Assembly: GCA_963719085.1 (NCBI GenBank)
Contig: CAVRAL010000004.1
Span: 672,001-736,000, forward strand
Reading direction: 5' to 3'
Length of the DNA stretch: 64,000 nucleotides
From: a candidate division FCPU426 bacterium
GTDB taxonomy: Bacteria > Oederibacteriota > Muellerivitia > Muellerivitales > Muellerivitaceae
The notes under the pieces were generated by a model. It was not told the DNA's origin, did no database searches, and saw only the letters and a program-made list of their open reading frames with translations. The stretch's first letter is position 1, and each line of letters starts with the position of its first letter. A program made the translations under genes and the position numbers. Shown here piece after piece: positions 47,759 through 62,664 of the stretch.

Positions 47759-49924
47759 ATGCAACAAATTCAAGTCGCCCTCGTTCCCCCGGTTCAACAA
47801 TCTTTCTTGGTGCAGCTGGCCCGTGATTTCCGCTCGGCCTTGAGCTATCTTTCGTTTTATTCCAGCGACAGCCCCTTTGTGGTGGGCGCCATCCGCAAGC
47901 TTCACAAAGATTTACAACGGCTCCTCAATACGGTGAATCCATTGGTGCTTTACCGGCAGGATGGATCGCTTTTCGCCAACGGTTCGGCGCTCAATGAAAC
48001 CGGGGATCTGTTGAAAATTTTCGAGGAAAAAAAATGGGATGCGGTGCTTATTGAAAACGGCCTGGCTTACAACGAATGGGTCTCCTGGCTGCGCCATATG
48101 GCTTTTCCCTTCGAGGAAAATCAAAGTCAAAGTGTTCCTTGGGAGCACTTGCGCCAAATTGAGTTGACCGATTTTATTTTGGAAGAAGCGCCGGCGGCCG
48201 CCTTCGTGGAAGTGCCCGAGGTCACGGCCGTGAACGCGGTGGACATCGCGTTGGAAGCCATCGCCGCCGAATTGCCCGCCGCGCCGACCGAAGAGGACAA
48301 TATTAAAGTCGAGGAGGCCTTCTCGCCCGAATCGCTTCAACCCAATTTATCCGGGGCCCAAATGGAAGAAGTCCCCGCCGCCGCCGAATCCATCCCGGCG
48401 CCGGCGGCCGAAAATCAACCCGCTCAATCCAGCGAAGCGCTTGGCGCGGCCCTTTTGGCCACCGTGGCCGAGGCCTGGCACTTTTCCCGCCTCCTCAAAA
48501 AAACGCCGCGGGAAACCGATGAAAAACTCGCTTTGGATAAAGCGAATTCCCAATTTTTCAACCATCTGTTGGATCGGTTGGATACCGCTTCTCCGGACTT
48601 GAAGGGCATTGTCCAATGGTTCCGCACGTCCCAAGGCGATGTGGTGGACAACGACGCGGTCTTGGCCATGGTGCCTTTGATGGAAATCGCGATTCATCAC
48701 CAGTGGACCGTGGTTCTTTTTGATCCGGCCACCGAAGGCCTGGTGAATGACTGCTTGGGCTTGTGGGGCGCCCAAGGCAATCAGGAACTGGTGGAAAAAA
48801 CCGTGACCGCCTTAGCCGAGGGGCTCAACCGCACCGAATCCGAACGGCGCATCGCCTTGACCCATTTGATGGATGCCCGGCCCTGGGTGCATGATCCGGC
48901 CCTTTTGGGAAAAGTTTTGGAGCAGCTTTGCCATTTACTCAGCGCTGAAAAAAATCCGGGCGTCTACCAAAGCGCCCTGCTTTCGGCTTGGGACTTGGTG
49001 GAACCCGCCCTCGAGACCAACAACGAAAACTCGGCCCTGAGCCTTTTATCCACCCTTCATTTTCACGCGGATGACGATGAGCCCTCGTCCGAGTTCCCGG
49101 AAAGGGCTTCCATCGCCCGGCATTGGCTTTTTGAGCGCTCCAATCCCGATCTCATTCGCCGCATGGCCGCTTGCGCCTATCAAGCCGGCCGGCTGGATCA
49201 TTTCCCCCTTTTAGGCGAGATGGCCGCGCCGCTTTTGCTCGAGGACTATCAAAACGCCGAACCGGACGAAAAGGGGATGCTTTTGGAACTTTTCGCCGAG
49301 ATGAGCGATCCCTTGCGCTCGGTCTTGACTGAGCGGGTCGCCGATCTGGAGACGCCCGAGGATCTGCGTTTGCTGATGCCGGTTTTAAAAACCGCCGGCA
49401 TGGACGCCGTTCTGTCCTTCCAGCTGTCCCCCTGGTTTTCCAGGGGCGACCGGGAATTTAAACTGAACCTGATCGGTTTGATTGAGCAGATCGGAAACTC
49501 CGAGGGAGGTCCCGCCCTTCGTCTGGCGCTTTTTGACGATTCGGAGGAGATTGCCTCGGAAGCCGCCAAGGTCCTGGGCAAGATCGGCTTCACGCCCGCC
49601 GGGCCGGTTCTCATTAAGGCTTTGAAGCTTCGGCAAAGCCGCGGACCTGACCATGAGCAATTTTCCATCGAGGTTTGCCGGGCGCTGGGCCATTTGGGAC
49701 AGCCGGAGAATATTTCCTTTTTAGAGGAGATGGCCAAGAAAAAATCCCTCTTCCGGGGAGCCAACGCGCCCTTGCCGGTGAGGCTGGCCGCCATCGAGGC
49801 TTTAGGGGAGATCAATCAACCCGCGGTCTGGGAATTTTTTGAGTCTTTGGCCGCCGAAAAAAATCCGGAACTTCAACAAACTTTGGACAAGATCATCCAC
49901 TCCAAGGCCGCTCAAGCGGTTTAA
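47759..49924 (+). CDS. HEAT-repeat protein (721 aa)
   Basis: C-terminal PBS/HEAT repeats (AAKVLGKIG, CRALGHLG, AIEALGEI), an acidic Ala/Glu/Pro linker, and a GGAG RBS. Confidence 0.8.
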   Translation: MQQIQVALVPPVQQSFLVQLARDFRSALSYLSFYSSDSPFVVGAIRKLHKDLQRLLNTVNPLVLYRQDGSLFANGSALNETGDLLKIFEEKKWDAVLIENGLAYNEWVSWLRHMAFPFEENQSQSVPWEHLRQIELTDFILEEAPAAAFVEVPEVTAVNAVDIALEAIAAELPAAPTEEDNIKVEEAFSPESLQPNLSGAQMEEVPAAAESIPAPAAENQPAQSSEALGAALLATVAEAWHFSRLLKKTPRETDEKLALDKANSQFFNHLLDRLDTASPDLKGIVQWFRTSQGDVVDNDAVLAMVPLMEIAIHHQWTVVLFDPATEGLVNDCLGLWGAQGNQELVEKTVTALAEGLNRTESERRIALTHLMDARPWVHDPALLGKVLEQLCHLLSAEKNPGVYQSALLSAWDLVEPALETNNENSALSLLSTLHFHADDDEPSSEFPERASIARHWLFERSNPDLIRRMAACAYQAGRLDHFPLLGEMAAPLLLEDYQNAEPDEKGMLLELFAEMSDPLRSVLTERVADLETPEDLRLLMPVLKTAGMDAVLSFQLSPWFSRGDREFKLNLIGLIEQIGNSEGGPALRLALFDDSEEIASEAAKVLGKIGFTPAGPVLIKALKLRQSRGPDHEQFSIEVCRALGHLGQPENISFLEEMAKKKSLFRGANAPLPVRLAAIEALGEINQPAVWEFFESLAAEKNPELQQTLDKIIHSKAAQAV

Positions 49925-49970: not shown

Positions 49971-50008
49971 AAACCCCTTTCGTCCCAAGACGAAAGGGGT
50001 TTATTTTT
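49971..50008. terminator. Hairpin between convergent genes (probable terminator)
   Basis: Perfect 14-bp stem aaacccctttcgtc/gacgaaaggggttt with a ccaa loop, followed by attttt. Confidence 0.8.
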
Positions 50009-51276
50009 TAGTTTTCGGCCAACAACCTTTCCCACATATTTTCGTTCAATAAAATCCGATGAAGAAAATCCTGGTCCCCCGCGGACGGAGGATGGGAAAG
50101 CGGATTGGCCGGAATCCGAAGGGTAAAAATCGTTCCGCGCCCGGGTTCGGGGCCGGTTGAGGCCTCAATTTTTCCGCCGTGGTGATAAACGATGAAAAAG
50201 CAAGTCATCAAGTGAAGCCCGAAATCCTGGGGATTATGGCTGCGGACAAAAAACGGGTCAAAGACCGACTGCAGGGCCTCCGAGGACAATCCGGGACCAT
50301 TGTCGGACAATTGAATCTCGATTTCCGCCGGGCCCTGCGCCGGGCCTACCGCTTTGGCTGAAATTTTAACCTCTCCCCCTTCGGGCAGGTTCGCGGACTC
50401 ATCCTCCAAAAGAAGCTCGAAGAGACGATGAAACTTGGCGCCGTCCACTTTCATGAGGGGCAACTGGGCCGAAACCAAATTCTCGACTTTAATTTTTCGT
50501 TTGGCGAGGGAAGATTCGAGTTTTTTCAAGCTCTCATTCACCACGTCCTGGAGCTTCACTTCATCCGGAAAATCATATTTCGGTTTCTCGGAGGCTTCCC
50601 ATAAATCGCTCAGAAGGAACGCCATCTTGTCCATTTGGCTTTGAACTTTTTTATAATAATCCTTCCAAAAGTCGGGATTACGCAACTGTTCCAAGTCAAT
50701 GTTCTCTTCTTTTAGTTTCTTCGGCGCCAGATCCAAGAATGTCTTCACCGCCACCATGGAGTTGCGGATATGGTGGCTTAAGCCGGTGGCCAAAATCCCC
50801 AAACTTAAAATACGGTCCGTCATCATCGTGTTGTGAAGCACGGACATTTTTTCACGCAATAACTGGTCCCGCTCGTTTTGAACGATGAAAAATTCAATGC
50901 CGCGACGCAGGGTATTCTCCAATTGGGGAATATCCCAAGGTTTGGTCACGTATTTATAGATCGCGCCCGTGTTGACCGCCTCAATGGCAGTTTCCAGGTC
51001 CGAATAGGCGGTCACCAATATCCGCAAGATCCGGGGATTGAGCTGACGGGCTTTTTCCAGAAACTGAATTCCCTTTTCCCCCGGCATACGCTGGTCCGTC
51101 ATCAGGACCGCTGTTTTATCCAAGTTCTCTTTAAGAATCCGAAATCCCTCATCGGCGCTGGGCGCCGTCAGGATGGGAAACTTATCCCCGAAGGTTTGGC
51201 GGAAATATTTGAGGGACTTTTCCTCATCATCCACGTAAAGCACATAATATTTTTTGTAATCGTAAAACGCGTCCAT
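50008..51276 (-). CDS. Receiver + degenerate histidine-kinase protein (PhcQ-like)
   Basis: REC domain (VDDE, TDQRMP, KPW), H-box SHHIRN, DNGPG and FDPF retained; N and G2 boxes degenerate; start MDAF after AAGGAG. Confidence 0.85.
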   Translation of the reverse strand: MDAFYDYKKYYVLYVDDEEKSLKYFRQTFGDKFPILTAPSADEGFRILKENLDKTAVLMTDQRMPGEKGIQFLEKARQLNPRILRILVTAYSDLETAIEAVNTGAIYKYVTKPWDIPQLENTLRRGIEFFIVQNERDQLLREKMSVLHNTMMTDRILSLGILATGLSHHIRNSMVAVKTFLDLAPKKLKEENIDLEQLRNPDFWKDYYKKVQSQMDKMAFLLSDLWEASEKPKYDFPDEVKLQDVVNESLKKLESSLAKRKIKVENLVSAQLPLMKVDGAKFHRLFELLLEDESANLPEGGEVKISAKAVGPAQGPAEIEIQLSDNGPGLSSEALQSVFDPFFVRSHNPQDFGLHLMTCFFIVYHHGGKIEASTGPEPGRGTIFTLRIPANPLSHPPSAGDQDFLHRILLNENMWERLLAEN

Positions 51277-51292
51277 GATCGTCTCCTTCAAG

Positions 51293-53962
51293 CTAGGCTG
51301 TTTTTTCTTCCGCCCGCGCGGGCAAATCGAGCGTAAATTCCGCCCCATTTCCCTTTTCACTTCTGACCGAAATCCGGCCTTCTTGTTCCTGCAAGATCCT
51401 AAAACAAAGGCTCAGCCCCAATCCCATTCCTTGCCCGACGTCTTTGGTGGTAAAAAAAGGATCAAAAATCTTATCCATGACTTGCGGGTCGATCCCCGCC
51501 CCGTTGTCCCGGACTTTAATGAGAACCCGGTTGTTTTCTTCCCGGCTTTCAATGAAAAGCCGGGCTTCATCCTTCTCGAATTTCTTTTCTTTTAAGGCGT
51601 CGCCGGCGTTCTGGATCAAGTTGATGAAAACCTGCACCATTTTATTACTGTCCGCCAGCATGGTTTGTTCTTCCGGAATATTCACTTCCACTTTCACGTG
51701 GTCTTTTAACTCATGGCTTAAAAAACGTAAGGCCGTGTCCACAACCCCCTTCACCTCGATTAAATCCTTGCCCCCCCCCATGTGGGGATGGGTGAACGTC
51801 CGAAGGTCGGTGACGATCCGCTTCACCCTTTGGACACCGTCTTCGATATCGTCCAACACTTCCGTGTAAACCGGGCGTTCGGCTTCGGGCAGTTGGTCTT
51901 TTTTTGTTCTTAGAACATACAGGGCCTGGGCCGCATAGTTAAGCGGATTATTAATTTCATGGATAAGCCCGGCGCTTAAGCGGCCGAGTGAGGCCATTTT
52001 TTCATTTTGAACCAACTGTCCTTCGGTTTCTTTCAATTGTTCGAGTGTCGATTCCAGTGCATTTTTCTCGCGCGCCAAATCACGCTGATAATGGTGGGAT
52101 TCGACCAAATTTTTCACGCGAACGTGCAATTCGGTCGTGGAAAAAGGCTTTGACAAAAAATCGCTGGCTCCCGACTCAAGCGCCCGCATTTTGGTCTCAT
52201 CATCCGCGCGGGCCGTGAGCAAAATAATGGGGATTCCCTGGGTGGAAACCTGATTTTTGAGCTCCCGGCACACTTCAATACCGTCTTTTTCGGGCATCAT
52301 CATGTCGAGCAGGATTAAATCCGGGAGAAATTGACGGGATTTTTCCAAGGCTTGCTGCCCGTCCACGGCTTCAATGACCTCGTATTGTTTTTGAAGTTGG
52401 GTTTTTAAAAATCCCAGCATGTCCGGCTCATCATCGGCGATGAGCAATTTCGGCTTGCGGCCCAAGGCGTAAGAATCCGGCCGCAGGGTATCGGCCAAGG
52501 AGGCCATCGTGGGAAAAAGTTCGGCCCTTCGATAAAGTTTTGACAGCCATTCATCCGGTTCCGGGGCGCTGCCGGCCTGACCGGAGGCCTCCTTTTTAAT
52601 TTCCCGGGTTTCGCCTCCCGCGGCCGGCGCCGGAGCGGCTTCATAGGGCAGTTTCACGCTCATCACCGTGCCCTTTCCACTCTCGCTTTGAACGCTCACT
52701 TCGCCGCCTTGGACCTCGGTGAGTTCTTTGACCAACGCCAATCCGATTCCCGTTCCCTGGTATTTGCGGTTGGACGCAGAGTCCGCCTGCCAAAAACGGT
52801 CAAAAATAAACGGAAGATTTTGCGCGGCAATGCCCATACCCGTATCCCGAACTTGCAAAAGAAGAAATGCCTCCTTCTTCTCGGCCTTTAATTCCACCCG
52901 CCCGCCCGCGGGGGTAAACTTCAAGGCGTTAAAGGTGAGATTGAGCACAATTTTTTCCAGTTTATCCCGGTCCAAAAGAACCGTTTCCACTTCCGGAGCG
53001 ACCGTCGTGGTTAAGGCCACCCGCTTATCCCGGGCCACGGCGGATACGGATTGGGTTAGGCCCCGCAAAAACTCGGCTATCGCTACCGGCTCTTTTTTAA
53101 CTTCCATACGCCCGGATTCCAATTTCACTAAATCCAGTAAGTCATTGATCAATTTCAAAAGCCGCAAAGCGTTGCCATGCATAATCTTCAAGGTTCCCCG
53201 GGTTTCCTCGTCCATCCAATTGGCTTTGAGCTGCTGCAGGCTTTCCAAGGGGGCGATCAAAAGCGTTAAGGGCGTCCGCAGTTCGTGGCTGATATTGGCG
53301 AAAAATTGGCTTTTCATCCGGTCAAGCTCGACAAGTTTGCGGTTGTTTTCTTCCAAGGCTTTTTTGTTTTGATCCAACTCAAACCGCAGAACGAACTCCC
53401 GAATGCGCAGCCGATTCGTGAAATAAGTTCCGATGACCGCGAAAGTCGCGGTGAGAGACAAAAAATAAAGATTATTGAAAAAAATGCCGCCGAAATACTC
53501 GTTTCCGTGGCCCACACAAGCGGCCACGTAAATCATCAGGGTGGCGACACAAACAATTAAGGTTTCCTGGTAAGTCCAGGGAACCAGCAGGCAAAAAGCC
53601 ACCAAAACCACGTTTAAGCCGGCGTAGTAGGGAGACACCGCCCCTTCGGTCGAGTAAATCATCCAGGTGATCGCCCCCAGCGGCAACATGGGTAAAATCA
53701 GGAATAAAAGACGGTCATGCCGCAAACCCCAACGGCTGTAAAAAAGCCCGAAAAGCAATCCCACCAAAGCCGAACACATCAACCGAAGTTCCAAGAAATA
53801 ATGAACCTGCTTGGGATAAACCTGCATATCCAGCGAGATGCCCGCGGGCATGGCGATAATGGCGACCCAGCAGATGATCTTAAACAGGCGCCTTCGCTCG
53901 AGTTTGTTGTAGTCCTCGAACGCCTTTTTAACCTCGGGCTGATGGATCAGATCGTTGCTCAT
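51293..53962 (-). CDS. Membrane hybrid sensor TM-HisKA-HATPase-REC-HisKA-HATPase (PhcS-PhcR fusion-like)
   Basis: 5-6 N-terminal TM helices including PYYAGL; first kinase SHELRTPL...GTGIGL; REC ADDE/LDMMMP/KP; second kinase HEINNPL...GMGLGL. Confidence 0.9.
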   Translation of the reverse strand: MSNDLIHQPEVKKAFEDYNKLERRRLFKIICWVAIIAMPAGISLDMQVYPKQVHYFLELRLMCSALVGLLFGLFYSRWGLRHDRLLFLILPMLPLGAITWMIYSTEGAVSPYYAGLNVVLVAFCLLVPWTYQETLIVCVATLMIYVAACVGHGNEYFGGIFFNNLYFLSLTATFAVIGTYFTNRLRIREFVLRFELDQNKKALEENNRKLVELDRMKSQFFANISHELRTPLTLLIAPLESLQQLKANWMDEETRGTLKIMHGNALRLLKLINDLLDLVKLESGRMEVKKEPVAIAEFLRGLTQSVSAVARDKRVALTTTVAPEVETVLLDRDKLEKIVLNLTFNALKFTPAGGRVELKAEKKEAFLLLQVRDTGMGIAAQNLPFIFDRFWQADSASNRKYQGTGIGLALVKELTEVQGGEVSVQSESGKGTVMSVKLPYEAAPAPAAGGETREIKKEASGQAGSAPEPDEWLSKLYRRAELFPTMASLADTLRPDSYALGRKPKLLIADDEPDMLGFLKTQLQKQYEVIEAVDGQQALEKSRQFLPDLILLDMMMPEKDGIEVCRELKNQVSTQGIPIILLTARADDETKMRALESGASDFLSKPFSTTELHVRVKNLVESHHYQRDLAREKNALESTLEQLKETEGQLVQNEKMASLGRLSAGLIHEINNPLNYAAQALYVLRTKKDQLPEAERPVYTEVLDDIEDGVQRVKRIVTDLRTFTHPHMGGGKDLIEVKGVVDTALRFLSHELKDHVKVEVNIPEEQTMLADSNKMVQVFINLIQNAGDALKEKKFEKDEARLFIESREENNRVLIKVRDNGAGIDPQVMDKIFDPFFTTKDVGQGMGLGLSLCFRILQEQEGRISVRSEKGNGAEFTLDLPARAEEKTA

Positions 53963-55374
53963 TTTGGTTTTCTTATTTCAAGGAAAACATTAATGCCCGT
54001 AACATCCAAATTCACGGTCCAGGAACCCTCCGGAGCCGCTTCGGGTTTGACCAGTTTCATTTGCGCCGCGTCCCGGTAAATCAAATGCCATTCCATAAAA
54101 CTTTCCATGACATTTTGGAAAGGGTTCGAGGGGGTCACATTGGTGGCCAACAAAAGGCCTCCCGGCGCCAATAGACTGTAAAAATAATCCATCAACTTTT
54201 TGCAAATCCGATCCTCCAAATAATCGAACAAACCGGCGCAATAGATAAAATCGTAGGTTTTTTCCGGCGGCCCCGTGACAGGCTTGAAGGATTCTTTCAA
54301 AATGTGGTTGACGGACTTTTTGACCATCTTGATGGGGGTTCTTCGAAGATGGCGCCTTTTTATTTCTTCCAATGTTTTTCCGGTAAACGCCAAAGTCTCG
54401 TCGTTAAAATCCATTAATTCAAACTCGGCCTTGTCGCAAATCTCGTCTTGGATCAGAAAATTTTGAACTTCCTGCGCGGGGCCGCAAGCCATATTTAAAA
54501 ACGAGGCGACCCGTTTTTCCCGGGCGGCCCGCTCCGTTTCCTCGCTCAACTTCCGCACTAAATGCTTGATTCGATTTCGGTGGGCCTCGCAAGGCGGGGC
54601 GTTGACGAACCAAAAGTTGACGATTTTGGCGAACAGCGAACTGCCCTGAAGCGGATCGCCGAGCATCATGTTGACCATCTCATAATCACCGGCGTATCCC
54701 AGTGGCTTTTGAAAACTCCGGTAGACAAAGGGAGAACAAAGGACGATGGGGTGAATCTGCCGCCGGCTGTAGGAGCGGTGGGTGGACCGCACGTCGCTGG
54801 GTAAACTGGAAATGGTTTCCTCGAACCTTTCAAACAAAGAGCCGACGGCCGGGGTAATGGGGTTTTTTAATTCTTGGATCGAATCCCTCTCCATTTGGAT
54901 CCGGTCCCCCGAAGGCTCCGAGCGGATGCTTAATTCCACTTGTTCCAGCCAACGCCTCATGTCCAACAGGAAAGTTTGCATATCGGCGATGACAACCTTT
55001 AACTCATTGGAAATGAGATGGATTTTCTCCCATTCCTTCAAGAATTCGGCGAATTCGTTTTGAAGTTTGTCTTTTTGGTGGATGGAAGTGAAAATATCCA
55101 CATCCAGCCAGTTTTCTTCCAAGGTGCATTCGCAAACCAACAGGATGCCGGTGTTGACTAGATTGCTGACGACCGCCCGACCGGAATAAACCATCCGGTC
55201 ATTCATGATCATTCTAAAATCGGTTAAAACTTCAGATAATTGGAGAATGCTGTAAGGGTTGTAAACCTCAAAAACCACCGTGTAACGCGTGAGCCTGAGC
55301 AAGGTCGCTCGAAATTCCGTGCCTTGGCTGTTACGGCATACAATGAAAGTGTCTTTACCCGTTGAGATCGACAT
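53959..55374 (-). CDS. phcB: PhcB-like SAM-dependent methyltransferase (3-hydroxy fatty acid methyl ester synthase family)
   Basis: KPLGYAGDYEM, AHRNR, SAM motif ACGPAQE, DFIYCAGLFDYL, EWHLIYR; 471 aa; ATGA-coupled to a sensor kinase as in Ralstonia phcBSR. Confidence 0.8.
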   Translation of the reverse strand: MSISTGKDTFIVCRNSQGTEFRATLLRLTRYTVVFEVYNPYSILQLSEVLTDFRMIMNDRMVYSGRAVVSNLVNTGILLVCECTLEENWLDVDIFTSIHQKDKLQNEFAEFLKEWEKIHLISNELKVVIADMQTFLLDMRRWLEQVELSIRSEPSGDRIQMERDSIQELKNPITPAVGSLFERFEETISSLPSDVRSTHRSYSRRQIHPIVLCSPFVYRSFQKPLGYAGDYEMVNMMLGDPLQGSSLFAKIVNFWFVNAPPCEAHRNRIKHLVRKLSEETERAAREKRVASFLNMACGPAQEVQNFLIQDEICDKAEFELMDFNDETLAFTGKTLEEIKRRHLRRTPIKMVKKSVNHILKESFKPVTGPPEKTYDFIYCAGLFDYLEDRICKKLMDYFYSLLAPGGLLLATNVTPSNPFQNVMESFMEWHLIYRDAAQMKLVKPEAAPEGSWTVNLDVTGINVFLEIRKPK

Positions 55375-55442
55375 GGATCCCTTTCCCCAAGGCTTAAAAT
55401 CGACTTATCTTACACGACTCTTAAAAAAAAAATCCCGAAGGC

Positions 55443-56990
55443 TCAGTTCCCCTTGAAAACCCGCAGCAAGGTTCCCAACCCATGTTGCGCGCTCACTCCC
55501 AATAGACCGCCCATCATGGCGCCGGCGATCCCCAATCCCCCCACATCCGCCCCCACCAAGGACAAACCCTTCAAGGGAGTCTTGGCTTTAAGGCTTTTAA
55601 GCCCGTATCGGCGGGGGGTTCCGGGATAACCATAAATGGCCCCTTTTCGGTGGCTGGTGAAATGTTCCACCGAAAGCGGAGTGGACAATTCGGCGAAAGC
55701 GATTTGGGCTCGAAAACCGGGAATACGGCTTTCCACAAAATCCAAAAGGGTTTCGGTGATTTTTTCCTTCAACCTTTGGTATTCGGGCCCCCGCCCCATC
55801 CACTTTTTCCCGCTCCAATCCTGAAAAACGGAATAATCCAGGGGCGCGATAATTTCCGCGGTCGGTCTCATCGCGGCCGGATCCTTCAGCCCCGGAAAAG
55901 AAAGATAACAAGACGAAGCCGTTCCCTGGGCCAATTGGTTTCGGTTTTCCCAAATAACATCGTGGTCAAAGCTGTTATAAATCCAAAAATTTTGACCGTG
56001 GATGCCCAAATGCTCACAACGGGATTTTAGCCCCAGATAAAGGGTCACAACGCCATAGGGAGAAACGGAGGAGATTTCCCTCATTTCATCCTCGTCGATC
56101 AACCCCGGCGGCAAAAGTTCTCCGTAAGTGGCTTGCGCTCCCGCGTCCGAATAGATCTCGGAGGCCTTTACCGTTCGGGGCCCCCGGGAATCTTCCAGCT
56201 CCACCCCGATGGCTTTTGTTCCTTCCATCAAAATCCGCCGTACCCGGCTTCTGACTTTCAGCTCGCCGCCGGCCTCTTGAACCACCTTGGCGATGGCCAA
56301 GCCTAAAGAGGCGCCCGAACCCACCGGATAATAACCCCCTTCGAGATAATGATGGGCGATGACCGCGTGGGTCCCCAGACTCGCCGATTGCGGAGGCAAA
56401 CCGTAGTCCCCCCATTGGGAGGCCACCACGCCTTTCAATCGTTGATCTTGAAACCGGTGATCCAGGTATTTCTTTAAAGGTTGAAGGGCCATTTCCCGGC
56501 ATCGTTGAAAATAATCTTTCTGTCTTTGGCTGCGGCCCGGTCCGGCGAACTGGCCCGGAAGATGGCGCGTCACTAAATCCAAATCACGGAAATAACGCCG
56601 AAGATTCGCTTTCTCCGCCGGAAAAACGCCGGCGAGTTTTTTTAAATAAGCTTCCCGGCCCGAGGGAACCTCAAATTTAAAACCCGGGTAGAGGAATGTT
56701 TCAAAAGGATCTTTCATTTGGACCCAATCGACGCCGCCGCCGGTAATGAAATCCATGGCCCGCCTTAAGGGATTGTTGAGATTCATCTCGCCGACATAAT
56801 GCAATCCCACGTCCCAATGGTAGCCGCCGGGACGTTGGAAGGTATGCGTAAAACCTCCCAGCTTGAAATGCTGTTCAAGCACTAAAACCCGGTAGCCTTT
56901 TATCCGGGCGAGAGCGGCGGCGGCCGCCAATCCGCCGATGCCCGAACCAATAACGATCGCGTCGTAGGAGTCCTCTTTTTCCATCGTCAC
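55443..56990 (-). CDS. FAD-dependent oxidoreductase, phytoene desaturase / retinol saturase family
   Basis: IGSGIGGL, LEQH...GG.TH.F, WDVGLHYVG, GG.YP.G, STPLS..HF.....GAIYG. Confidence 0.88.
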   Translation of the reverse strand: MTMEKEDSYDAIVIGSGIGGLAAAAALARIKGYRVLVLEQHFKLGGFTHTFQRPGGYHWDVGLHYVGEMNLNNPLRRAMDFITGGGVDWVQMKDPFETFLYPGFKFEVPSGREAYLKKLAGVFPAEKANLRRYFRDLDLVTRHLPGQFAGPGRSQRQKDYFQRCREMALQPLKKYLDHRFQDQRLKGVVASQWGDYGLPPQSASLGTHAVIAHHYLEGGYYPVGSGASLGLAIAKVVQEAGGELKVRSRVRRILMEGTKAIGVELEDSRGPRTVKASEIYSDAGAQATYGELLPPGLIDEDEMREISSVSPYGVVTLYLGLKSRCEHLGIHGQNFWIYNSFDHDVIWENRNQLAQGTASSCYLSFPGLKDPAAMRPTAEIIAPLDYSVFQDWSGKKWMGRGPEYQRLKEKITETLLDFVESRIPGFRAQIAFAELSTPLSVEHFTSHRKGAIYGYPGTPRRYGLKSLKAKTPLKGLSLVGADVGGLGIAGAMMGGLLGVSAQHGLGTLLRVFKGN

Positions 56991-57763
56991 CCGGCAGCCG
57001 CCGGCAAGGGGCTTAAATCCCGGGCACGATCATGACTCCTCGAATTCGAAAAAGAGATCAAGGATTCCGGATCCCAATCGTAAATTTGATATTGGCCGGG
57101 CGCGTCATTCTTATTTTTCGTGACCTGGGCCAAACAATAAACACCGCCTTCCAATGTCCGGGTGAAATATTCCCAGCCGCCCGATGAGGCGCGCTCGGGC
57201 GGGGGTAAAGGAACCGTAAATCCACTTAAAGAAAAACAAAGACCTTGCCCAAGGGCTTTGACCATCGCCTCTTTCATGGTGAATAACTGGAAAAAAAGGG
57301 GCCCTTGGGACTCAAGCGGTTGAGAACGAAGAAAGTCGATCTCCCGCGGGGAAAAATAGCGCTCGGCCAACCGCCGGCCCCGCTGAAAGGCTTCGGGGCT
57401 TAAATCAACTTTTTCAACATCAATACCCACTTCACACCAAGAAAATGAACAGGCGATCAATCCTTGGGTATGGGATAAATTAAACCGCAATCGGGTTTTC
57501 TCAAGAACCGGCTTTCCGCCTTCTTGAAAACCAAATCGGATCCGATGGGGGTCGCTTTTTAAGTAAAAGGCGGCGAGCTGCCGCAGGAGCAGACGGGACC
57601 ATAAATATTCCCGGCGCCGGCTTTCCAAGCCGAAATCGCCCATTCGCGACTGTTCGTCTTCCGATAAAAAAGAGGGACGATCGAGAACTGTTTCCTTTAT
57701 CCGAAACAGGTGGATATGAACCGCTTGGGGTTCCAAGGGGGCCGTTTCCCGTTCCAGTGTCAT
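56987..57763 (-). CDS. 4'-phosphopantetheinyl transferase (Sfp type)
   Basis: LS.DE..R, GKP, FNLSH, GIDVE, FT.KEA..KA.G.G; start placed at MTLE (57796 is the alternative). Confidence 0.9.
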   Translation of the reverse strand: MTLERETAPLEPQAVHIHLFRIKETVLDRPSFLSEDEQSRMGDFGLESRRREYLWSRLLLRQLAAFYLKSDPHRIRFGFQEGGKPVLEKTRLRFNLSHTQGLIACSFSWCEVGIDVEKVDLSPEAFQRGRRLAERYFSPREIDFLRSQPLESQGPLFFQLFTMKEAMVKALGQGLCFSLSGFTVPLPPPERASSGGWEYFTRTLEGGVYCLAQVTKNKNDAPGQYQIYDWDPESLISFSNSRSHDRARDLSPLPAAAG

Positions 57764-57779
57764 AAATCCTTCCTTGATT

Positions 57780-58499
57780 TCAACCCATTCCCCCATCCAA
57801 AACGATCACGCTGCCAGTGAGATAATCCGGGGAGGACTCCGCCAGGAAAAAAACTATCTTGGAAACTTCTTCCACCTCGCAAAACCGGCGCAAGGGAACG
57901 GTTTGAAGAATGGCTTCCTTCGCCTGGGGTGATAACTTTTCAATCATGGGAGTGACAACTCCCCCCGGCGCCACCACATTGGCGATGACGCCGTAAGGCC
58001 CCGCTTCTTTGGCTAAGGCCTTGGTAAATCCGATAATGCCGGCTTTGGAAGCCGAATAATTGGCTTGGCCGGGAAGGCCGTGAATCCCGGAGATCGACGA
58101 GAGATTGATGACCCTCCCCTTTTTCTTTTTCAACATGTCGAAAACAAACCTGCGGGTGAGGTAAAAAACGCCGAAAAGATTCGTGTACAGCACATCCGTC
58201 CAATCCGAATCTTGCATGGAAAACAAAGGTTTGTCCCGGGTGATGCCGGCGTTGTTGACCAAAACGTCCACGCTTCCTTCTTCTTGAAGCACGGCCTTGC
58301 AAAATTGGTCGCAGGCTTCCCGATCCGCCACATCCAGGGCGTGGGCCTTTATTTTCCCCGCGAAACGGTTTTCCATTTCCCGCGCGGAGGCCTCATTGGA
58401 ATGAAAGGTAAAATGGACCTTCCATCCGGCGCCGGCGAATGTTTCAACCAAATTTTTGCCGATCCCCGAGGAGCCGCCCGAAATCACGATTTTTTTCAT
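57780..58499 (-). CDS. fabG: 3-oxoacyl-ACP reductase (FabG-like SDR)
   Basis: GGSSGIG, VNNAGITRD, SS, GQANYSASK, N.VAPG; ATGA-coupled to the dehydratase. Confidence 0.9.
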   Translation of the reverse strand: MKKIVISGGSSGIGKNLVETFAGAGWKVHFTFHSNEASAREMENRFAGKIKAHALDVADREACDQFCKAVLQEEGSVDVLVNNAGITRDKPLFSMQDSDWTDVLYTNLFGVFYLTRRFVFDMLKKKKGRVINLSSISGIHGLPGQANYSASKAGIIGFTKALAKEAGPYGVIANVVAPGGVVTPMIEKLSPQAKEAILQTVPLRRFCEVEEVSKIVFFLAESSPDYLTGSVIVLDGGMG

Positions 58500-58948
58500 G
58501 GCGTTTTCAGCTTCCCGAATAAAAATTTCCCGGTTGCCACCACTTCGCCGTTCACCGTTCCTCTTCCCTCGATGATCCGGTTCGATCCGACGGCTTTGGT
58601 AATGGTCATATGAATCTCCAGTTGATCTCCCGGAACCAGGGGTTTCATAAATCGAAAGTCCGTCACCGCCCCGATCACGTCCACCACTCCCGGAAGCTCC
58701 CCTTCCTCGGTGATCCGGATCAAAATAGCCGCGGTTTGGGCGAAACATTCAATGGTGAGAACCCCCGGGAAAATCGGATTCCCGGGAAAATGACCGGGAA
58801 AATAGATTTCATTGACCGAGATATTTTTAATCGCCCGTAAGTCTTTTCCTTTTTCGAACGAAAGAACCCGATCCACCATCAAGACGGGAAAGCGTTGTTT
58901 TAAAAAAGATAGAACCGGAATTGGGCCCGATTCGTTTTCATTTGGCAC
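58496..58948 (-). CDS. fabZ: 3-hydroxyacyl-ACP dehydratase (FabZ-like)
   Basis: QRFP.LMVD, F.GHFPG.PI.PGVL.IE..AQ (catalytic His/Glu), F..P..PGD.L. Confidence 0.9.
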   Translation of the reverse strand: MPNENESGPIPVLSFLKQRFPVLMVDRVLSFEKGKDLRAIKNISVNEIYFPGHFPGNPIFPGVLTIECFAQTAAILIRITEEGELPGVVDVIGAVTDFRFMKPLVPGDQLEIHMTITKAVGSNRIIEGRGTVNGEVVATGKFLFGKLKTP

Positions 58949-59186
58949 GAAGCTGCTCTTCGATCATTTTGGCGGAGGAGTCAACCGTGGACATCTGGAC
59001 CAGTTGATCCGGGTCAATCGTGAGATTAAACTCGTTTTCCAATTTGGATAAAAACTCAAGGGCCCGCATGGAATCGTATTTCGCCATTTCGGTGAAGGAT
59101 TTGGACCCCGAAATATCCTCCGGCTGAAGGTCGAACATGCCGGCGATAATTCCCTTTATTTTCGATTGAATTTCAGTTAATTGCAT
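58938..59186 (-). CDS. Acyl carrier protein
   Basis: 82-aa acidic protein with a DSM site and LE.EF; AAGGAG RBS. Confidence 0.9.
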   Translation of the reverse strand: MQLTEIQSKIKGIIAGMFDLQPEDISGSKSFTEMAKYDSMRALEFLSKLENEFNLTIDPDQLVQMSTVDSSAKMIEEQLRAK

Positions 59187-59197
59187 TTTTTCTCCTT

Positions 59198-60097
59198 TTA
59201 TTTTTTGATTTTGATAAAAGATATTTTCCGTTCCGTTTTTGAGACGGCGGCGACCACTCCGCAAGAATAAGCGCTCGATAAAAAGTGATCCAACGAATCC
59301 GACCCGCCCAATCCCAGTTCTAAAACGGCGGGATTGGGTGAATGGCGGATCAGGCCTCTTGGAAAGCCGGATTCAAGAAAATGCTCTTCCGGAGCGCCCA
59401 ACCATTGCACGCCATTCCATAAAAGCTCAAACCGTTTTTGAAAACCGAGGGGTAGGCTTAAATCCCCCTTCAATTGCAGTGTGAAATAATCCACGACTTC
59501 AAATGAAGCGCCTTGGCTTGCGTCGCCGGAAGCTAATAAAAAGGTCGCGCCTTCCTTAAAAATCATCGCCGAATCGGGCGGCGCCGCCATGGATTTTAGA
59601 AAAGCCGGCGCCTTTTCCACCGCGCCCGCCAAACAAGTTTGAAAAAGCCCGCTGTTATAACCTTCCCAGGCAAAGCCAATGGCGTCCACGAACGAGGTGC
59701 TCCCATTAGTCAGGGTCACGTTCGGGCCTTTTAACTGAAACCATATTCCAATCCGGCTTCCGGCCGCGTTGGCCACGGTGTTGGGGAAATCCATGGGATT
59801 AACCGTATTCGGGCCGTTTAAAAGGGCTTGCGAGTCGAAATCCACCACGCTTTCCATCGAGGCAAAAGCGCTTCCGGCGATCACGGCGAAATTCCGGCGG
59901 GCGGCCTCTTCCAATCCCGCCGCCATTCCATTTAAAGCCCGTGCGGCGGCGATTCCCGCCAACAAGGACAAAGCGTCAATATATTTTGGGGAAACATCAG
60001 GAAAAGATTTTTGAAATTCGGCGGGCAAAGTCTCGATGGTTAACCCATTATTTCCCAGAAACGCGTTGCCTTGGCGGTGAATGATGAGCGGTTTCAA
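59198..60097 (-). CDS. Non-catalytic ketosynthase-like protein (chain-length-factor-like)
   Basis: TTG start overlapping the KS stop with GGAGG upstream. KS N-domain motif NPMDFPNTVANAAG...LKGPN.T; the catalytic Cys site reads TNGSTS; C-domain short, lacking the KS His motifs. Confidence 0.82.
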   Translation of the reverse strand: MKPLIIHRQGNAFLGNNGLTIETLPAEFQKSFPDVSPKYIDALSLLAGIAAARALNGMAAGLEEAARRNFAVIAGSAFASMESVVDFDSQALLNGPNTVNPMDFPNTVANAAGSRIGIWFQLKGPNVTLTNGSTSFVDAIGFAWEGYNSGLFQTCLAGAVEKAPAFLKSMAAPPDSAMIFKEGATFLLASGDASQGASFEVVDYFTLQLKGDLSLPLGFQKRFELLWNGVQWLGAPEEHFLESGFPRGLIRHSPNPAVLELGLGGSDSLDHFLSSAYSCGVVAAVSKTERKISFIKIKK

Positions 60098-61314
60098 GAA
60101 GCGGCCTCCCGCTTCAATAAAACCAAACACGACGTATTCCCCCCAAAAGCGAAAGAATTCGAAAGGGCGACTTTTCCCTGAAAGGCACGGGATTGATTGG
60201 GCACACAGTCGGACACACAATTTTCATCCTGAATTTCCCAATTCATGGTCGGTAATAATCGGCCGCGATCCAAAGATAAACAAGTCATGACCGCTTCGAT
60301 GGCGCTGGCGGCTCCCATGGTATGGCCGATCATGGACTTGATGGAGTTCACGGGAATTTTACAATCGGTCCCGAATACTTTTTTAATGGCGAAAGATTCA
60401 GTTTTATCGTTCGCCGGGGTTCCGGTGCCGTGGGCCGAGATAAAATCAATTTTTTCGGGCGCGAGTTGAGCCTGAGCCAAAGCCTTGAGGATGCTTTCGT
60501 AAGCGCCGACTCCCTCGGGATGGGGCGAGGTCATATGAAAGGCGTCCATGCCCAATCCATAACCGCCAATTTCACAATAAATGTGCGCGCCGCGGGCCTT
60601 CGCCGTTTCTAAGTTTTCAAGCAAGAGAACTCCCACCCCCTCGCTTACCACCAATCCTTTTCGGTTGGCGGAAAAGGGCCGGCATTTATCCGGCGTCAGG
60701 GAAAGAAGGCGGTTGAATCCGGTAAAGGCCACGCGGGAAAAAACATCCACTCCCCCGCAAATGGCTAAGTCTAAATTGCCCTGGCGGATTTGCTCAAATC
60801 CCCAGCCAATCGCGTAATTGCCGGAAGCGCAGGCGTTGGAAAAAACCATGGCTTGTCCGCCCACGCCCAAAAAATCAAGGACGGAAAAAGCGATCCGGGA
60901 ACTTTGGACTTTATCAAAGCTATCCGGTTTTATTTCGGCTTGGCGGTTTTTGACATTGAATTCGGACATGCGTTCAGCCAATTGGACTTCGCCCATCGTG
61001 GTTCCAAAATAACTGCCGACCCGAAGGGAATCGATCTGCGCAGCGGTGAGCCCGGCGTCTCGGAGCGCTTCTTGCGTGGCCAGGATGGAGAAAGCCGCGG
61101 CGCCTTCATAGCGGCCCGGGTTTTCTTTTTCAAAAAGATCCAAACGTTGCCGCTGTTTAATTTCACCGCCCACCTTTACTCGATAAGGCGCCGGATCCAA
61201 GGATTGAAGCGGCTCAATCCCGATATCACCGCGAACCATGGCTTCCCAGCTCGTCGCCACGTCTTCCCCCAGAGGACAAATCACGCCGAGGCCTGTGACA
61301 GCGACTTTTTTCAT
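60094..61314 (-). CDS. Beta-ketoacyl-ACP synthase (FabF-like KS)
   Basis: VAVTGLG, catalytic triad SNACASG / AHGTGT / GHTMGA, SNSFAFGG; AAGGAG RBS. Confidence 0.93.
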   Translation of the reverse strand: MKKVAVTGLGVICPLGEDVATSWEAMVRGDIGIEPLQSLDPAPYRVKVGGEIKQRQRLDLFEKENPGRYEGAAAFSILATQEALRDAGLTAAQIDSLRVGSYFGTTMGEVQLAERMSEFNVKNRQAEIKPDSFDKVQSSRIAFSVLDFLGVGGQAMVFSNACASGNYAIGWGFEQIRQGNLDLAICGGVDVFSRVAFTGFNRLLSLTPDKCRPFSANRKGLVVSEGVGVLLLENLETAKARGAHIYCEIGGYGLGMDAFHMTSPHPEGVGAYESILKALAQAQLAPEKIDFISAHGTGTPANDKTESFAIKKVFGTDCKIPVNSIKSMIGHTMGAASAIEAVMTCLSLDRGRLLPTMNWEIQDENCVSDCVPNQSRAFQGKVALSNSFAFGGNTSCLVLLKREAAS

Positions 61315-61583
61315 CCCGGGCTCCTTGCCAAACGCTTGAATCATTCGGGCCAAATTCGCTGATAATTTTCGCGATCAGTCAAAATTAGTTTCACGCTCAT
61401 CTTGCTTTCCCCGTCGGCTTTTAGCGCCATGACTCTTTCGTTGTTTTTCTGTCACTTTTAAGCGGGTTCGAAGTCCACGCCGCAGGTTTGTCTTCTAGAA
61501 ATGATAACTTGGTTTTCTTTTAAATTACAAAAAAAGGTTGAAATGGGTATTTTTTACACAGAAGTTGTTTATCGCTATTTTTT

Positions 61584-61642
61584 TGTCAAAACTTGACTAA
61601 AAAATTGATAAAACAATTTTAATTTTGCATGTTTACTGTCAA
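61584..61642 (-). promoter_or_regulatory. AT-rich candidate promoter/operator for the KS-phc operon
   Basis: Minus-strand TTGACA at 61637-61642 and 61584-61589; palindromes GTCAA-N3-TTGAC (61585-61597) and AAAATTG-N6-CAATTTT (61601-61620). Confidence 0.4.
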
Positions 61643-61644
61643 AA

Positions 61645-62664
61645 CTAGAAAAGAGAAAGTTGGTCGGTTGAGGAAACCGGTTTCATTTTTTTCCGCCCGA
61701 TTTTTAGGCCCGGGGCTCCAAAAACCATGGGAGCCGCGGACTGAACCACCGAAGGCTGCGCGGGCCCTTCGCTTTCAACAAGAACCGGCGCAAGAATGGG
61801 AATCTCGGAGACGATTGGCGTCGATGAAGCCTCAACTTTTTTGCCTTTGCTTTCCAAATAAGCTTTTCCGCCGGCGCACACCGAAAGATACTCGCACCAC
61901 CCGCAAAGACGGCTGGGCTTGACCGGAAAGGCCTTCGCCTTCTCAATTTCCTGGATTTTGGAGACGTATTTTTTTTTCAACCACTCCACTTCTTTGGCGT
62001 TGCGCTCGCTGACCACCAAGTCCTTGTCAAAAGCCACAAAATGCCAAGCCAGCTTCACCTTGGCGCTGGAGCCGATCTTCGGGTTCTGGGAAAGCCCGAT
62101 CTGGTAAAGCGCCAATTGATCCTCGTACTTGGCGTCTTCCTCGCTCATTCGGCGGGAGCTGGTTTTATAGTCGTGGATCCAAAAGGTCCCCTCGCTGTCT
62201 TTTCCCAATCGATCGATGAAGCCCTGCATTTTATATCGGCCGTCCGGGTCCAAATTAAAAAGCACCTTCATCTCAATGCCTTGGGTTTGATCTTGGTCAA
62301 ACGGCTGATATTTATGGTAATAATTTTCAACAAAAAGCTGGCCCTTCTCGTAATAGTCTTCCAGGGTCTGGCCTTCGTGCACAATCCGGATGGGCGTGGG
62401 AAAGCCGCGATCCCGCTGTTTTTTCAGGGCTTCCTGCCATTTATGTTCCCAATGGTTTTTAAAATAATTCAACAGCTCGTTGACGGTGGGAACGCGCTCG
62501 GGAATTTGTTGATAAAGATATTCCATGCACTCATGGAAACGGGATCCCAAAAAAAGCTCAATGCCTTCCGCCACCGGCGGCGGTGTTTTATGGATATAGC
62601 GGAACTCAAATTGGGCGGGGCAGGTGAAGTAGGTATTGACGCGGGAGTAAGAATAAATCGTCAT
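61645..62664 (-). CDS. Stand-alone RecB-family PD-(D/E)XK nuclease with Fe-S cysteines
   Basis: SYSR...Y..CP, G..FH, GFIDRL, IHDYKT, QL.LY, CGWCEY..VC; low-complexity tail ending QLSLF. Confidence 0.88.
   Translation of the reverse strand: MTIYSYSRVNTYFTCPAQFEFRYIHKTPPPVAEGIELFLGSRFHECMEYLYQQIPERVPTVNELLNYFKNHWEHKWQEALKKQRDRGFPTPIRIVHEGQTLEDYYEKGQLFVENYYHKYQPFDQDQTQGIEMKVLFNLDPDGRYKMQGFIDRLGKDSEGTFWIHDYKTSSRRMSEEDAKYEDQLALYQIGLSQNPKIGSSAKVKLAWHFVAFDKDLVVSERNAKEVEWLKKKYVSKIQEIEKAKAFPVKPSRLCGWCEYLSVCAGGKAYLESKGKKVEASSTPIVSEIPILAPVLVESEGPAQPSVVQSAAPMVFGAPGLKIGRKKMKPVSSTDQLSLF

Follow-up and report, generated by a model that had tools for sequence, protein, structure and literature searches.

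Phc signalling is known from the Ralstonia solanacearum complex (homologues occur in Cupriavidus and Paraburkholderia) and uses methyl 3-hydroxymyristate and methyl 3-hydroxypalmitate, signals that are made from ordinary fatty acids. According to the accessible portions of two reports on Ralstonia, the grouping of PhcB and PhcS follows the signal type and that of PhcR and PhcQ the phylotype (PMC8578825; also PMC11960443). Here we describe a locus of ten genes on the minus strand (50008-61314) of a 64,000-nt stretch of DNA, hereafter the window, whose positions serve as coordinates throughout; it comes from the genome (G000; 3.04 Mb, 99% complete) of an uncultured bacterium. In this locus a six-gene acyl synthase cassette and an optional tailoring gene precede the gene for a PhcB-family methyltransferase, which is followed by genes for a membrane kinase with a PhcS-type sensor domain and for a PhcQ-related receiver protein. 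We consider it fairly probable that the cassette builds a private acyl chain, that PhcB turns this chain into a methyl ester, and that the ester is sensed by the adjacent, matched kinase, which would signal through a PhcQ-like relay to an output elsewhere in the genome. A private methyl ester is the reading we favour; among the points for it, PhcB is the only enzyme in the cluster able to cap the chain.

The closest described relatives of the ketosynthase pair come from anammox bacteria. As far as the available text of a recent preprint goes (bioRxiv 10.64898/2026.05.19.726425), anammox cluster I comprises amxACP, amxFabZ, the pair amxFabF2/amxFabFmut, a phytoene-dehydrogenase-like gene and a B12 radical S-adenosylmethionine (SAM) gene. 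Its heterodimer of a ketosynthase (KS) and a partner resembling a chain-length factor (CLF) initiates by itself to acetoacetyl-acyl carrier protein (ACP), prefers a C8 probe and has tunnels that fit C12 and C16, with no further elongation in vitro (same preprint, same portion).

The probable signalling genes

All ten open reading frames (ORFs) of the preliminary description are present, in the order and with the families given there, as judged from ORF calls and from Pfam and NCBIfam assignments. Junctions recomputed from the chosen start codons run, from the KS gene to the last gene, -4, 11, -11, -4, 16, -4, 68, -4 and 16 nt, in agreement with the overlaps, the gaps of 11-16 nt and the 68 nt before phcB that had been noted. 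The ten-gene arrangement is far beyond chance, because the adjacency of cassette and phcB recurs in 12 other genomes of the family, and the sequence makes it likely that cassette and phcB are co-transcribed.

The methyltransferase (53959-55374, 471 aa), a single-copy gene in G000, is by homology a member of the PhcB family, as had been proposed. Of 8,000 candidates that were scored, at least 5,634 are relatives; among the best 120, many carry the JGI name '3-hydroxypalmitic acid methyl ester biosynthesis protein', and the relatives bearing this name are 59-82% identical to it. The protein aligns end to end, at 36-40% identity, with like-named proteins of Paraburkholderia, Cupriavidus and Massilia (Burkholderiales), which stand in for the Ralstonia PhcB, PhcS, PhcR and PhcQ proteins in all our Phc comparisons, and it keeps Arg22, which matches the R22 described as conserved and functionally important in PhcB in the accessible part of an earlier study (PMC6989110). 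Its AlphaFold model (pLDDT 87.6) consists of an N-terminal all-beta domain, a helical middle and a Rossmann domain. The best fold match, the uncharacterised Bordetella protein 3OCJ (Z 19.6, rmsd 3.2, 257 aligned), barely covers the N-terminal beta domain and is silent on the substrate, and a sequence search of the PDB with PhcB returned no useful match. A link of the N-terminal domain to PilZ is a lead only (score 0.84, PilZ on 27% of members), and a predicted complex of PhcB with the ACP, at 0.18 against a mark of 0.32, is counted neither for nor against.

The gene that follows (51293-53962, 889 aa) encodes a membrane hybrid kinase made up of a PhcS-type membrane sensor of 5-6 helices, a kinase (His226), a receiver (Asp553) and a second, PhcS-type kinase (His668). 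As a proxy for the Ralstonia operon we used a phcBSRQ-like operon on a Paraburkholderia plasmid. The membrane-domain profile of the 889-aa protein matches the proxy protein in PhcS position with 147 bits (positions 11-193), which bears out the PhcS-type sensor domain claimed beforehand. The claim that the protein is a fusion of PhcS with PhcR fares less well: the second kinase module is the best match of the PhcS-position kinase (37%), and the receiver in PhcR position is closer to the last gene of the locus (35% over 116 aa) than to the internal receiver (24%). Thus, the kinase looks like PhcS with an inserted kinase-receiver module rather than like a PhcS-PhcR fusion, a provisional assignment given that the proxy PhcR has merely 134 aa. 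An identity of the kinases with LvrA and LvrB was considered and rejected: these are the top NCBIfam match of the 889-aa protein, at 326 bits, far under the cut-off of 1200. A phcBSRQ-like operon on a conjugative plasmid of Paraburkholderia graminis (L081:12934-19364), in which the PhcR-position gene is receiver-only, stands beside a gene for a cyclopropane fatty acid synthase and genes for the pel polysaccharide.

Over 206 aa, the product of the last gene (50008-51276, 422 aa) shares 38% identity with the PhcQ-position protein, and it stands alone where the Phc operon has PhcR (receiver and kinase) and PhcQ (receiver and tail). It keeps the receiver Asp61 and the H-box (His168-His169), but the Asn of the ATP-binding N-box is missing and the G2 box is degenerate in all 18 alignment rows that cover them, so that this PhcQ-related protein is probably a pseudokinase relay. 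No DNA-binding output domain is encoded in the locus, and the single LysR substrate domain of G000 is unlinked to it. A sigma-54 activator is a candidate for the output of the phosphorelay; the best match in G000 to the sigma-54 regulator of the relative G009 (58%) is G000:C1:236884-238293. In several relatives the operon has genes for sigma-54 NtrC-type regulators beside it (L118:14589-16001, L123:3220-4632, L133:16518-17963, L128:1047-2378). Other neighbours of the operon are a cytochrome P450 after the last phc gene in the cassette-less genomes G027 (L127:16491-17831) and G030 (L120:12466-13848), and a family-2 glycosyltransferase in G015, G028 and, by sequence, G019; these are possibly allele-specific tailoring or degrading enzymes.

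The acyl synthase cassette and its predicted product

A complete primary operon, plsX-fabH-fabD-fabG-acpP-fabF, lies elsewhere in G000 with each gene over its NCBIfam cut-off, whereas the KS, ACP and FabG of the cassette fall under the FabF, AcpP and FabG equivalog cut-offs. Thus, the cassette is a spare, dedicated synthase, apart from primary fatty acid synthesis as the preliminary description had it. Its genes encode a KS (60094-61314, 406 aa; Pfam) with an intact Cys162-His295-His331 triad, a CLF-like partner (59198-60097, 299 aa, TTG start), an ACP with an invariant Ser39 (58938-59186, 82 aa; Pfam and alignment) and, by family searches, a FabZ-type dehydratase (58496-58948, 150 aa), a FabG-type ketoreductase (57780-58499, 239 aa) and an Sfp/HetI-type phosphopantetheinyl transferase (PPTase; 56987-57763, 258 aa). 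Between the PPTase gene and phcB lies the optional FAD oxidoreductase gene (55443-56990, 515 aa), whose product falls among phytoene-desaturase and retinol-saturase-like clusters and is 26-28% identical to the enzyme of ladderane-type clusters.

The KS has its best PDB match in 9S5H_B (356 bits versus 277 for the next entry) and its partner in 9S5H_C (E 9e-21 versus 3e-8). Since residue positions in the 9S5H chains fit the numbering of Brocadia amxFabF2/amxFabFmut with offsets of +5 and -1, we infer that this entry is the Brocadia pair of the anammox preprint, whose main text gives no entry ids. The KS scores 253 bits to Iga11 versus 356 to the anammox enzyme, and in a tree with few outgroups and a long-branch warning the cassette KSs are sister to the KSs of loci resembling cluster I, with a support of 99, next to FabF2 of the cluster-I type. 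In the partner, the tunnel motif NPMDFPNTVAN is invariant among the relatives, as are the tunnel Phe, Thr and Val, while Met replaces the tunnel Ala110 and the protein has 299 aa versus 412 in anammox. The top fold matches of its AlphaFold model (pLDDT 82) are of the CLF type, namely AntDE and the ishigamide KS/CLF; on alignment, PDB match and model, the partner is a shortened, catalytically dead KS that resembles a chain-length factor. The best PDB match of the private ACP is the ACP of the ishigamide KS/CLF entry 6KXF.

PPTase, ACP, KS, dead partner, ketoreductase and dehydratase make up an iterative type II synthase set without an enoyl reductase in the cluster. Since ketoreductase and dehydratase occur without an enoyl reductase, the set resembles a highly reducing type II polyketide synthase (PKS), and a polyunsaturated chain is a plausible product; an enoyl reductase might yet be lent by primary metabolism. 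It is conceivable, but in our view very improbable, that the locus is instead a cluster for a ladderane-like or otherwise unusual membrane lipid, with the methyltransferase acting on the chain and the kinases in a purely regulatory role. The KS and its partner do have their nearest relatives in the anammox cluster-I heterodimer, and, as in that cluster, there is a phytoene-desaturase-like gene. However, no B12 radical SAM gene, such as comes after the FAD gene in the cluster-I-like locus that was checked, is found among the ten genes, and the relatives have no room for one between KS and phcB, so that this is not a ladderane cluster. Moreover, the FAD gene is optional and its product only distantly similar, the methyltransferase is of the PhcB family and older than the cassette at this site, and presence is patchy within genera, unlike that of a core lipid pathway.

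Other genes of this kind were seen in passing. Many metagenome loci (L148-L202) have the order of anammox cluster I, with ACP, FabZ, KS, dead KS and FAD enzyme followed by a 485-aa gene, which is a B12 radical SAM gene in L151; the FAD gene is present in 50 of 64 distant loci. Two further loci (L203, L204) hold another KS/dead-KS cluster with an HMG-CoA-reductase-like gene, FabG, an FAD enzyme, an acyltransferase and an FG-GAP protein. G000 itself carries a FabF-like ORF (G000:C4:233255-234151; L214:7255-8151) that covers only profile positions 141-406 and is probably frameshifted or truncated, and a second spare FabG-FabF pair beside a BioF-like gene (G000:C5; L213:4738-8285), perhaps for biotin precursor synthesis.

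In the scheme that we favour, the PPTase would prime the private ACP and the housekeeping FabD would load malonyl groups, no malonyl transacylase being encoded in the locus; with that enzyme and a DNA-binding output both missing, the earlier description of the locus as self-contained does not fully hold. The heterodimer of KS and CLF-like partner would then start and extend a medium chain, of C8-C16 by analogy with the anammox enzyme and probably unsaturated, in which the optional FAD enzyme could saturate or shift a double bond. The chain might be freed by a thioesterase encoded elsewhere, by hydrolysis or by PhcB, and PhcB would methylate the carboxyl group with SAM to give a diffusible methyl ester. 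The PhcS-type membrane domain is envisaged to bind this ester, presumably in a density-dependent manner, and to switch the flow of phosphate through the hybrid kinase to the PhcQ-like receiver, which would act on an output elsewhere in the genome, the sigma-54 activator being a candidate.

The preliminary description had assigned release of the chain from the ACP to PhcB. The cluster indeed encodes no thioesterase among its ten genes, and PF00975 was not found in the G000 genome; release by PhcB is nevertheless unproven, in light of a 2021 review in which PhcB uses the cognate (free) fatty acids, of three hotdog thioesterase matches elsewhere in G000 and of a thioesterase in one relative. In this relative, G022, a PF00975 thioesterase (L113:9186-9977) replaces the FabG ketoreductase, and it is the sole release enzyme seen among 13 cassettes. 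The locus could show whether PhcB takes acyl-ACP or the free acid as its substrate, a point on which the literature differs. A KS pair that comes with a terminal capping enzyme and lacks the radical SAM step may also reveal what an anammox-type pair makes. The eight biosynthetic genes fit one 7.4-kb construct, which makes the chemistry accessible in Escherichia coli, and the source organism gives no hint of pathogenicity.

Distribution, insertion site and probable exchange

Among the best 80 of 574 genome loci surveyed, 68 are from Verrucomicrobiota, and most show the succession of methyltransferase, sensor and receiver where the contig permits. Two of the 80 hold the cassette, both apparently duplicates of genomes of this family; of 52 loci whose upstream sequence spans at least 8 kb, 50 lack it and the remaining two are the cassette bearers. 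Within the class, phcB occurs in 26 of 32 genomes and the dedicated KS with its partner in 13, always beside phcB, which upholds the proposed co-conservation. A profile of the partner finds the same 13 genomes among 99 of the phylum, plus three weak partial matches, and a single full-length strong match among 1.84 billion representatives. The cassette lies on the phcB contig in 12 of the 13 (in G007 the contig breaks inside the PPTase gene) and was never found apart from phcB in these 13 cassette genomes, with the 99 phylum genomes searched. Of 13 close metagenome loci, four reach the phcB position and all four have phcB there, at least one of the loci duplicating a listed genome. No match to the PhcB profile was obtained near 64 distant CLF-like loci, so no pairing of PhcB with such a synthase outside this family was found there. 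In other phyla, mostly in related Verrucomicrobiota, a scan of 36 genes preceding phcB found that 18 of them, directly adjacent to it, encode a FadL/TodX outer-membrane channel (L011, L012, L018 and 15 more).

The site at which the cassette sits can be recognised by comparison with relatives that lack it. In 12 of the 13 cassette-less phcB genomes other genes lie directly upstream of phcB (in G024 the contig ends there). A PD-(D/E)XK nuclease gene (61645-62664, minus strand), a conserved flank and a landmark outside the system, adjoins phcB in seven of the 13 and the KS gene in G000. In the intergenic region between this gene and the KS gene (61315-61644), positions 61500-61592 are homologous to DNA before phcB in the cassette-less congener G027 (L127; blastn, 72.6% over 95 bp, E 8e-8). 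Taken together, flank and homology place the cassette between phcB's ancestral upstream DNA and phcB; positions 61500-61592 are probably the ancestral phcB control region and may act as a promoter. The gene of about 340 aa before phcB in cassette-less relatives had been entertained as a tailoring enzyme and was rejected, as it is the PD-(D/E)XK flank.

Cassette and phcB keep together both where the site is ancestral and where the surrounding genes differ. An overlap of phcB with the gene preceding it is seen in G023, G026 and the metagenome loci L143 and L145; the distance between the two is 17-37 nt in three genomes, 53-73 nt in four loci and 108-292 nt in three, in a survey that leaves aside the SDR junction of G021. 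Tailoring varies: the FAD enzyme occurs in six of the 13 cassette genomes, with its gene placed between phcB and the sensor gene in one of them, G006, as also at locus L140; an extra SDR occurs in four, and the thioesterase in place of FabG in one. In the four SDR genomes, which belong to three genera, the extra gene lies between the PPTase gene and either phcB or the FAD gene (L117:7580-8395, L119:8272-9027, L123:9268-10032, L125:9018-9782). In G029, a phcB fragment lies at the ancestral site without the cassette (L110:1-200), and a full cassette is found on a separate 6.5-kb contig (L109).

The trees of the operon's parts are incongruent. The cassette-bearing PhcBs form a clade (13 of 26 rows, support 100/99 in a careful tree), as do the cassette-bearing sensor domains (11 of 24 rows, SH-aLRT 97 in a quick tree), and the members of the cassette clade span seven genera, three of which also hold cassette-less genomes. 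By contrast, the cytoplasmic kinase parts require 5-7 label changes in quick trees, and approximately unbiased (AU) tests, from which G001 and G015 were left out as long branches, reject a cassette clade for the receiver-kinase half (p 3e-49) and for the last gene (p 5e-75). Compared with its cassette-less congener G027, G000 shares 61% identity in PhcB and 43% in the sensor, versus 87% in the receiver-kinase half and 88% in the last gene; the sensor domains of congeners with the same allele are 93-94% identical. The four SDR genomes group in the PhcB (97) and sensor (100) trees, but not in the KS or CLF trees. These patterns suggest that lineages trade cassette, PhcB and sensor domain as one specificity block, and the joint swap of synthase, PhcB and sensing half suggests a private lipid signal.

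A more elaborate version of this idea, appealing but doubtful, is that the variants form lipid dialects akin to those of agr: the ladderane-type KS/CLF would make a conjugated polyunsaturated chain, FAD enzyme, SDR and thioesterase would edit it, PhcB would cap it, and a matched sensor would travel with each variant. Were this true, the product would belong to a new class of autoinducers and be the first that is released from a ketosynthase pair of the anammox type, with a bearing on the ladderane precursor.

Several observations weigh against a private, co-inherited signal. Contiguous genes hitchhike, and some of the co-transfer might be due to linkage: whatever lies between the upstream flank and the kinase core, both conserved, would be carried along. 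The sensor is hypervariable everywhere, with 41-52% identity within genera among cassette-bearing pairs and 41-44% in two cassette-less pairs, so that its divergence is not specific to the cassette. Among the cassette genomes, which include kin and are not independent, identity of the KS is uncorrelated with that of PhcB or sensor (Spearman -0.01 and 0.11), and that of the CLF gives 0.32 and 0.22. Half of the PhcB-bearing relatives (13 of 26) lack the cassette, and the cassette of G029, given the second phcB fragment and the 6.5-kb contig, may be a second copy or misbinned. The 68 nt with a T-run between cassette and phcB in G000, together with the gaps of 108-292 nt in three relatives, make an internal promoter possible. 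On the biochemical side, the anammox heterodimer did not elongate past acetoacetyl-ACP in vitro, and PhcB is reported to use free fatty acids, yet the cluster has no thioesterase.

Alternatively, the cassette could be seen as a passenger or an output of the phc operon, making a polyene, a pigment or a membrane lipid under quorum control while PhcB methylates a primary fatty acid. Such an arrangement, which strikes us as rather unlikely, would agree with the occurrence of PhcB without the cassette in half of the relatives and in all 50 loci of other lineages whose upstream sequence reaches 8 kb or more (again among the best 80 of 574), and with the fact that the closest characterised KS/CLF systems make lipids or polyenes. 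It would leave the co-transfer to hitchhiking and the lack of correlation between KS and PhcB distances would be expected. However, the cluster has no acyltransferase, ligase, exporter or glycosyltransferase with which to use such a chain, the cassette was never seen apart from phcB in the genomes searched, the cassette-bearing sensor domains form a clade of their own, and the position of the FAD gene can be between phcB and the gene for the sensor.

The cassette might also feed PhcB and the sensor read the ester without any quorum sensing, the ester being an intracellular or membrane-state cue, or one exchanged between species. We regard this as improbable, even though no FadL over cut-off and no exporter was found, the single LysR gene, at most a putative PhcA counterpart, lies elsewhere, and the extra kinase-receiver module suggests a more complex integration. 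Diversifying, swapped pairs of synthase and sensor are typical of kin-specific extracellular signals, as in Ralstonia, and the FadL genes next to phcB in other phyla speak for a signal that crosses the outer membrane. In the staphylococcal agr system, swapped synthase-sensor pairs likewise serve a kin-specific extracellular signal. We retain the private methyl ester as the preferred reading.

A hairpin of 14 bp (49971-50002; fold z -3.4 on the minus and -4.7 on the plus strand) lies between the operon and a convergent HEAT-repeat gene (47759-49924). The strong hairpin reported at the end of the run is thus real, but its T-run follows on the plus strand, while the operon strand has just three U after it, and it is oriented as a terminator of the convergent gene and not of the operon. 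The 68-nt gap before phcB has no significant fold (z +0.87), and scans for promoters and terminators stayed at background level (9 versus 9.5 and 33 versus 26.5 expected, respectively).

Comparison with known systems

Our search of the open-access literature, which covered listings and the opening lines of abstracts, turned up no account of a phcB operon that carries a synthase of its own. The similarity to LvrA/LvrB of Leptospira, where a kinase-receiver-kinase is followed by a receiver-kinase, is generic; LvrA is listed as cytoplasmic, and the accessible part of the report mentions no linked methyltransferase (PMC8638967). The Photorhabdus systems, that is DarABC/PauR dialkylresorcinol and photopyrone signalling, are presented in the part of the source at hand as quorum signals from dedicated pathways (PMC13220807), and in this respect the locus resembles them. 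It differs in its unrelated receptor and its chemistry, and neither a methyltransferase nor a KS/CLF pair is known from these two systems. DarB and PpyS are ketosynthase-like, and the Photorhabdus receptors are of the LuxR type.

Aryl polyene and flexirubin clusters feature an aromatic starter ligase, acyl- and glycosyltransferases and transporters, none of which is found among the ten genes. The ishigamide system is closer: its Iga enzymes comprise a KS/CLF, an ACP, a ketoreductase and a dehydratase and make polyene acyl chains. The cassette has the same composition, no enoyl reductase in the cluster and matches to 6KXD and 6KXF, but it shows no non-ribosomal peptide synthetase or amide-forming step and ends in a methyltransferase and a sensor. 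With anammox cluster I it shares a KS with the Cys-His-His triad and a dead partner with which it would pair, the Phe/Thr/Val tunnel motif, ACP and FabZ; the desaturase-like FAD enzyme belongs to the same superfamily as that of cluster I, but at 26-28% identity and in just six of the 13 cassette genomes. It departs from cluster I in the absence of a radical SAM enzyme, the shorter partner with Met for Ala110, its own FabG and PPTase, and the tie to PhcB and a sensor.

The phcBSRQ operon is the nearest counterpart as a whole. Both have a full-length PhcB-family protein, an adjacent PhcS-type sensor and a PhcQ-related receiver protein without a DNA-binding domain, and in both, synthase and sensor vary together while the downstream parts follow the lineage. 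In contrast to phcBSRQ, the operon described here contains a six-gene acyl synthase and optional tailoring genes, its sensor has two kinase modules and an internal receiver, and one downstream protein takes the place of PhcR and PhcQ. The locus suggests that such a signal can be changed by placing a dedicated synthase ahead of PhcB and exchanging the sensor domain along with it, which would open a way to private chemical dialects. On balance, it is reasonably likely that the locus works like Phc signalling, with the private synthase as the new element.

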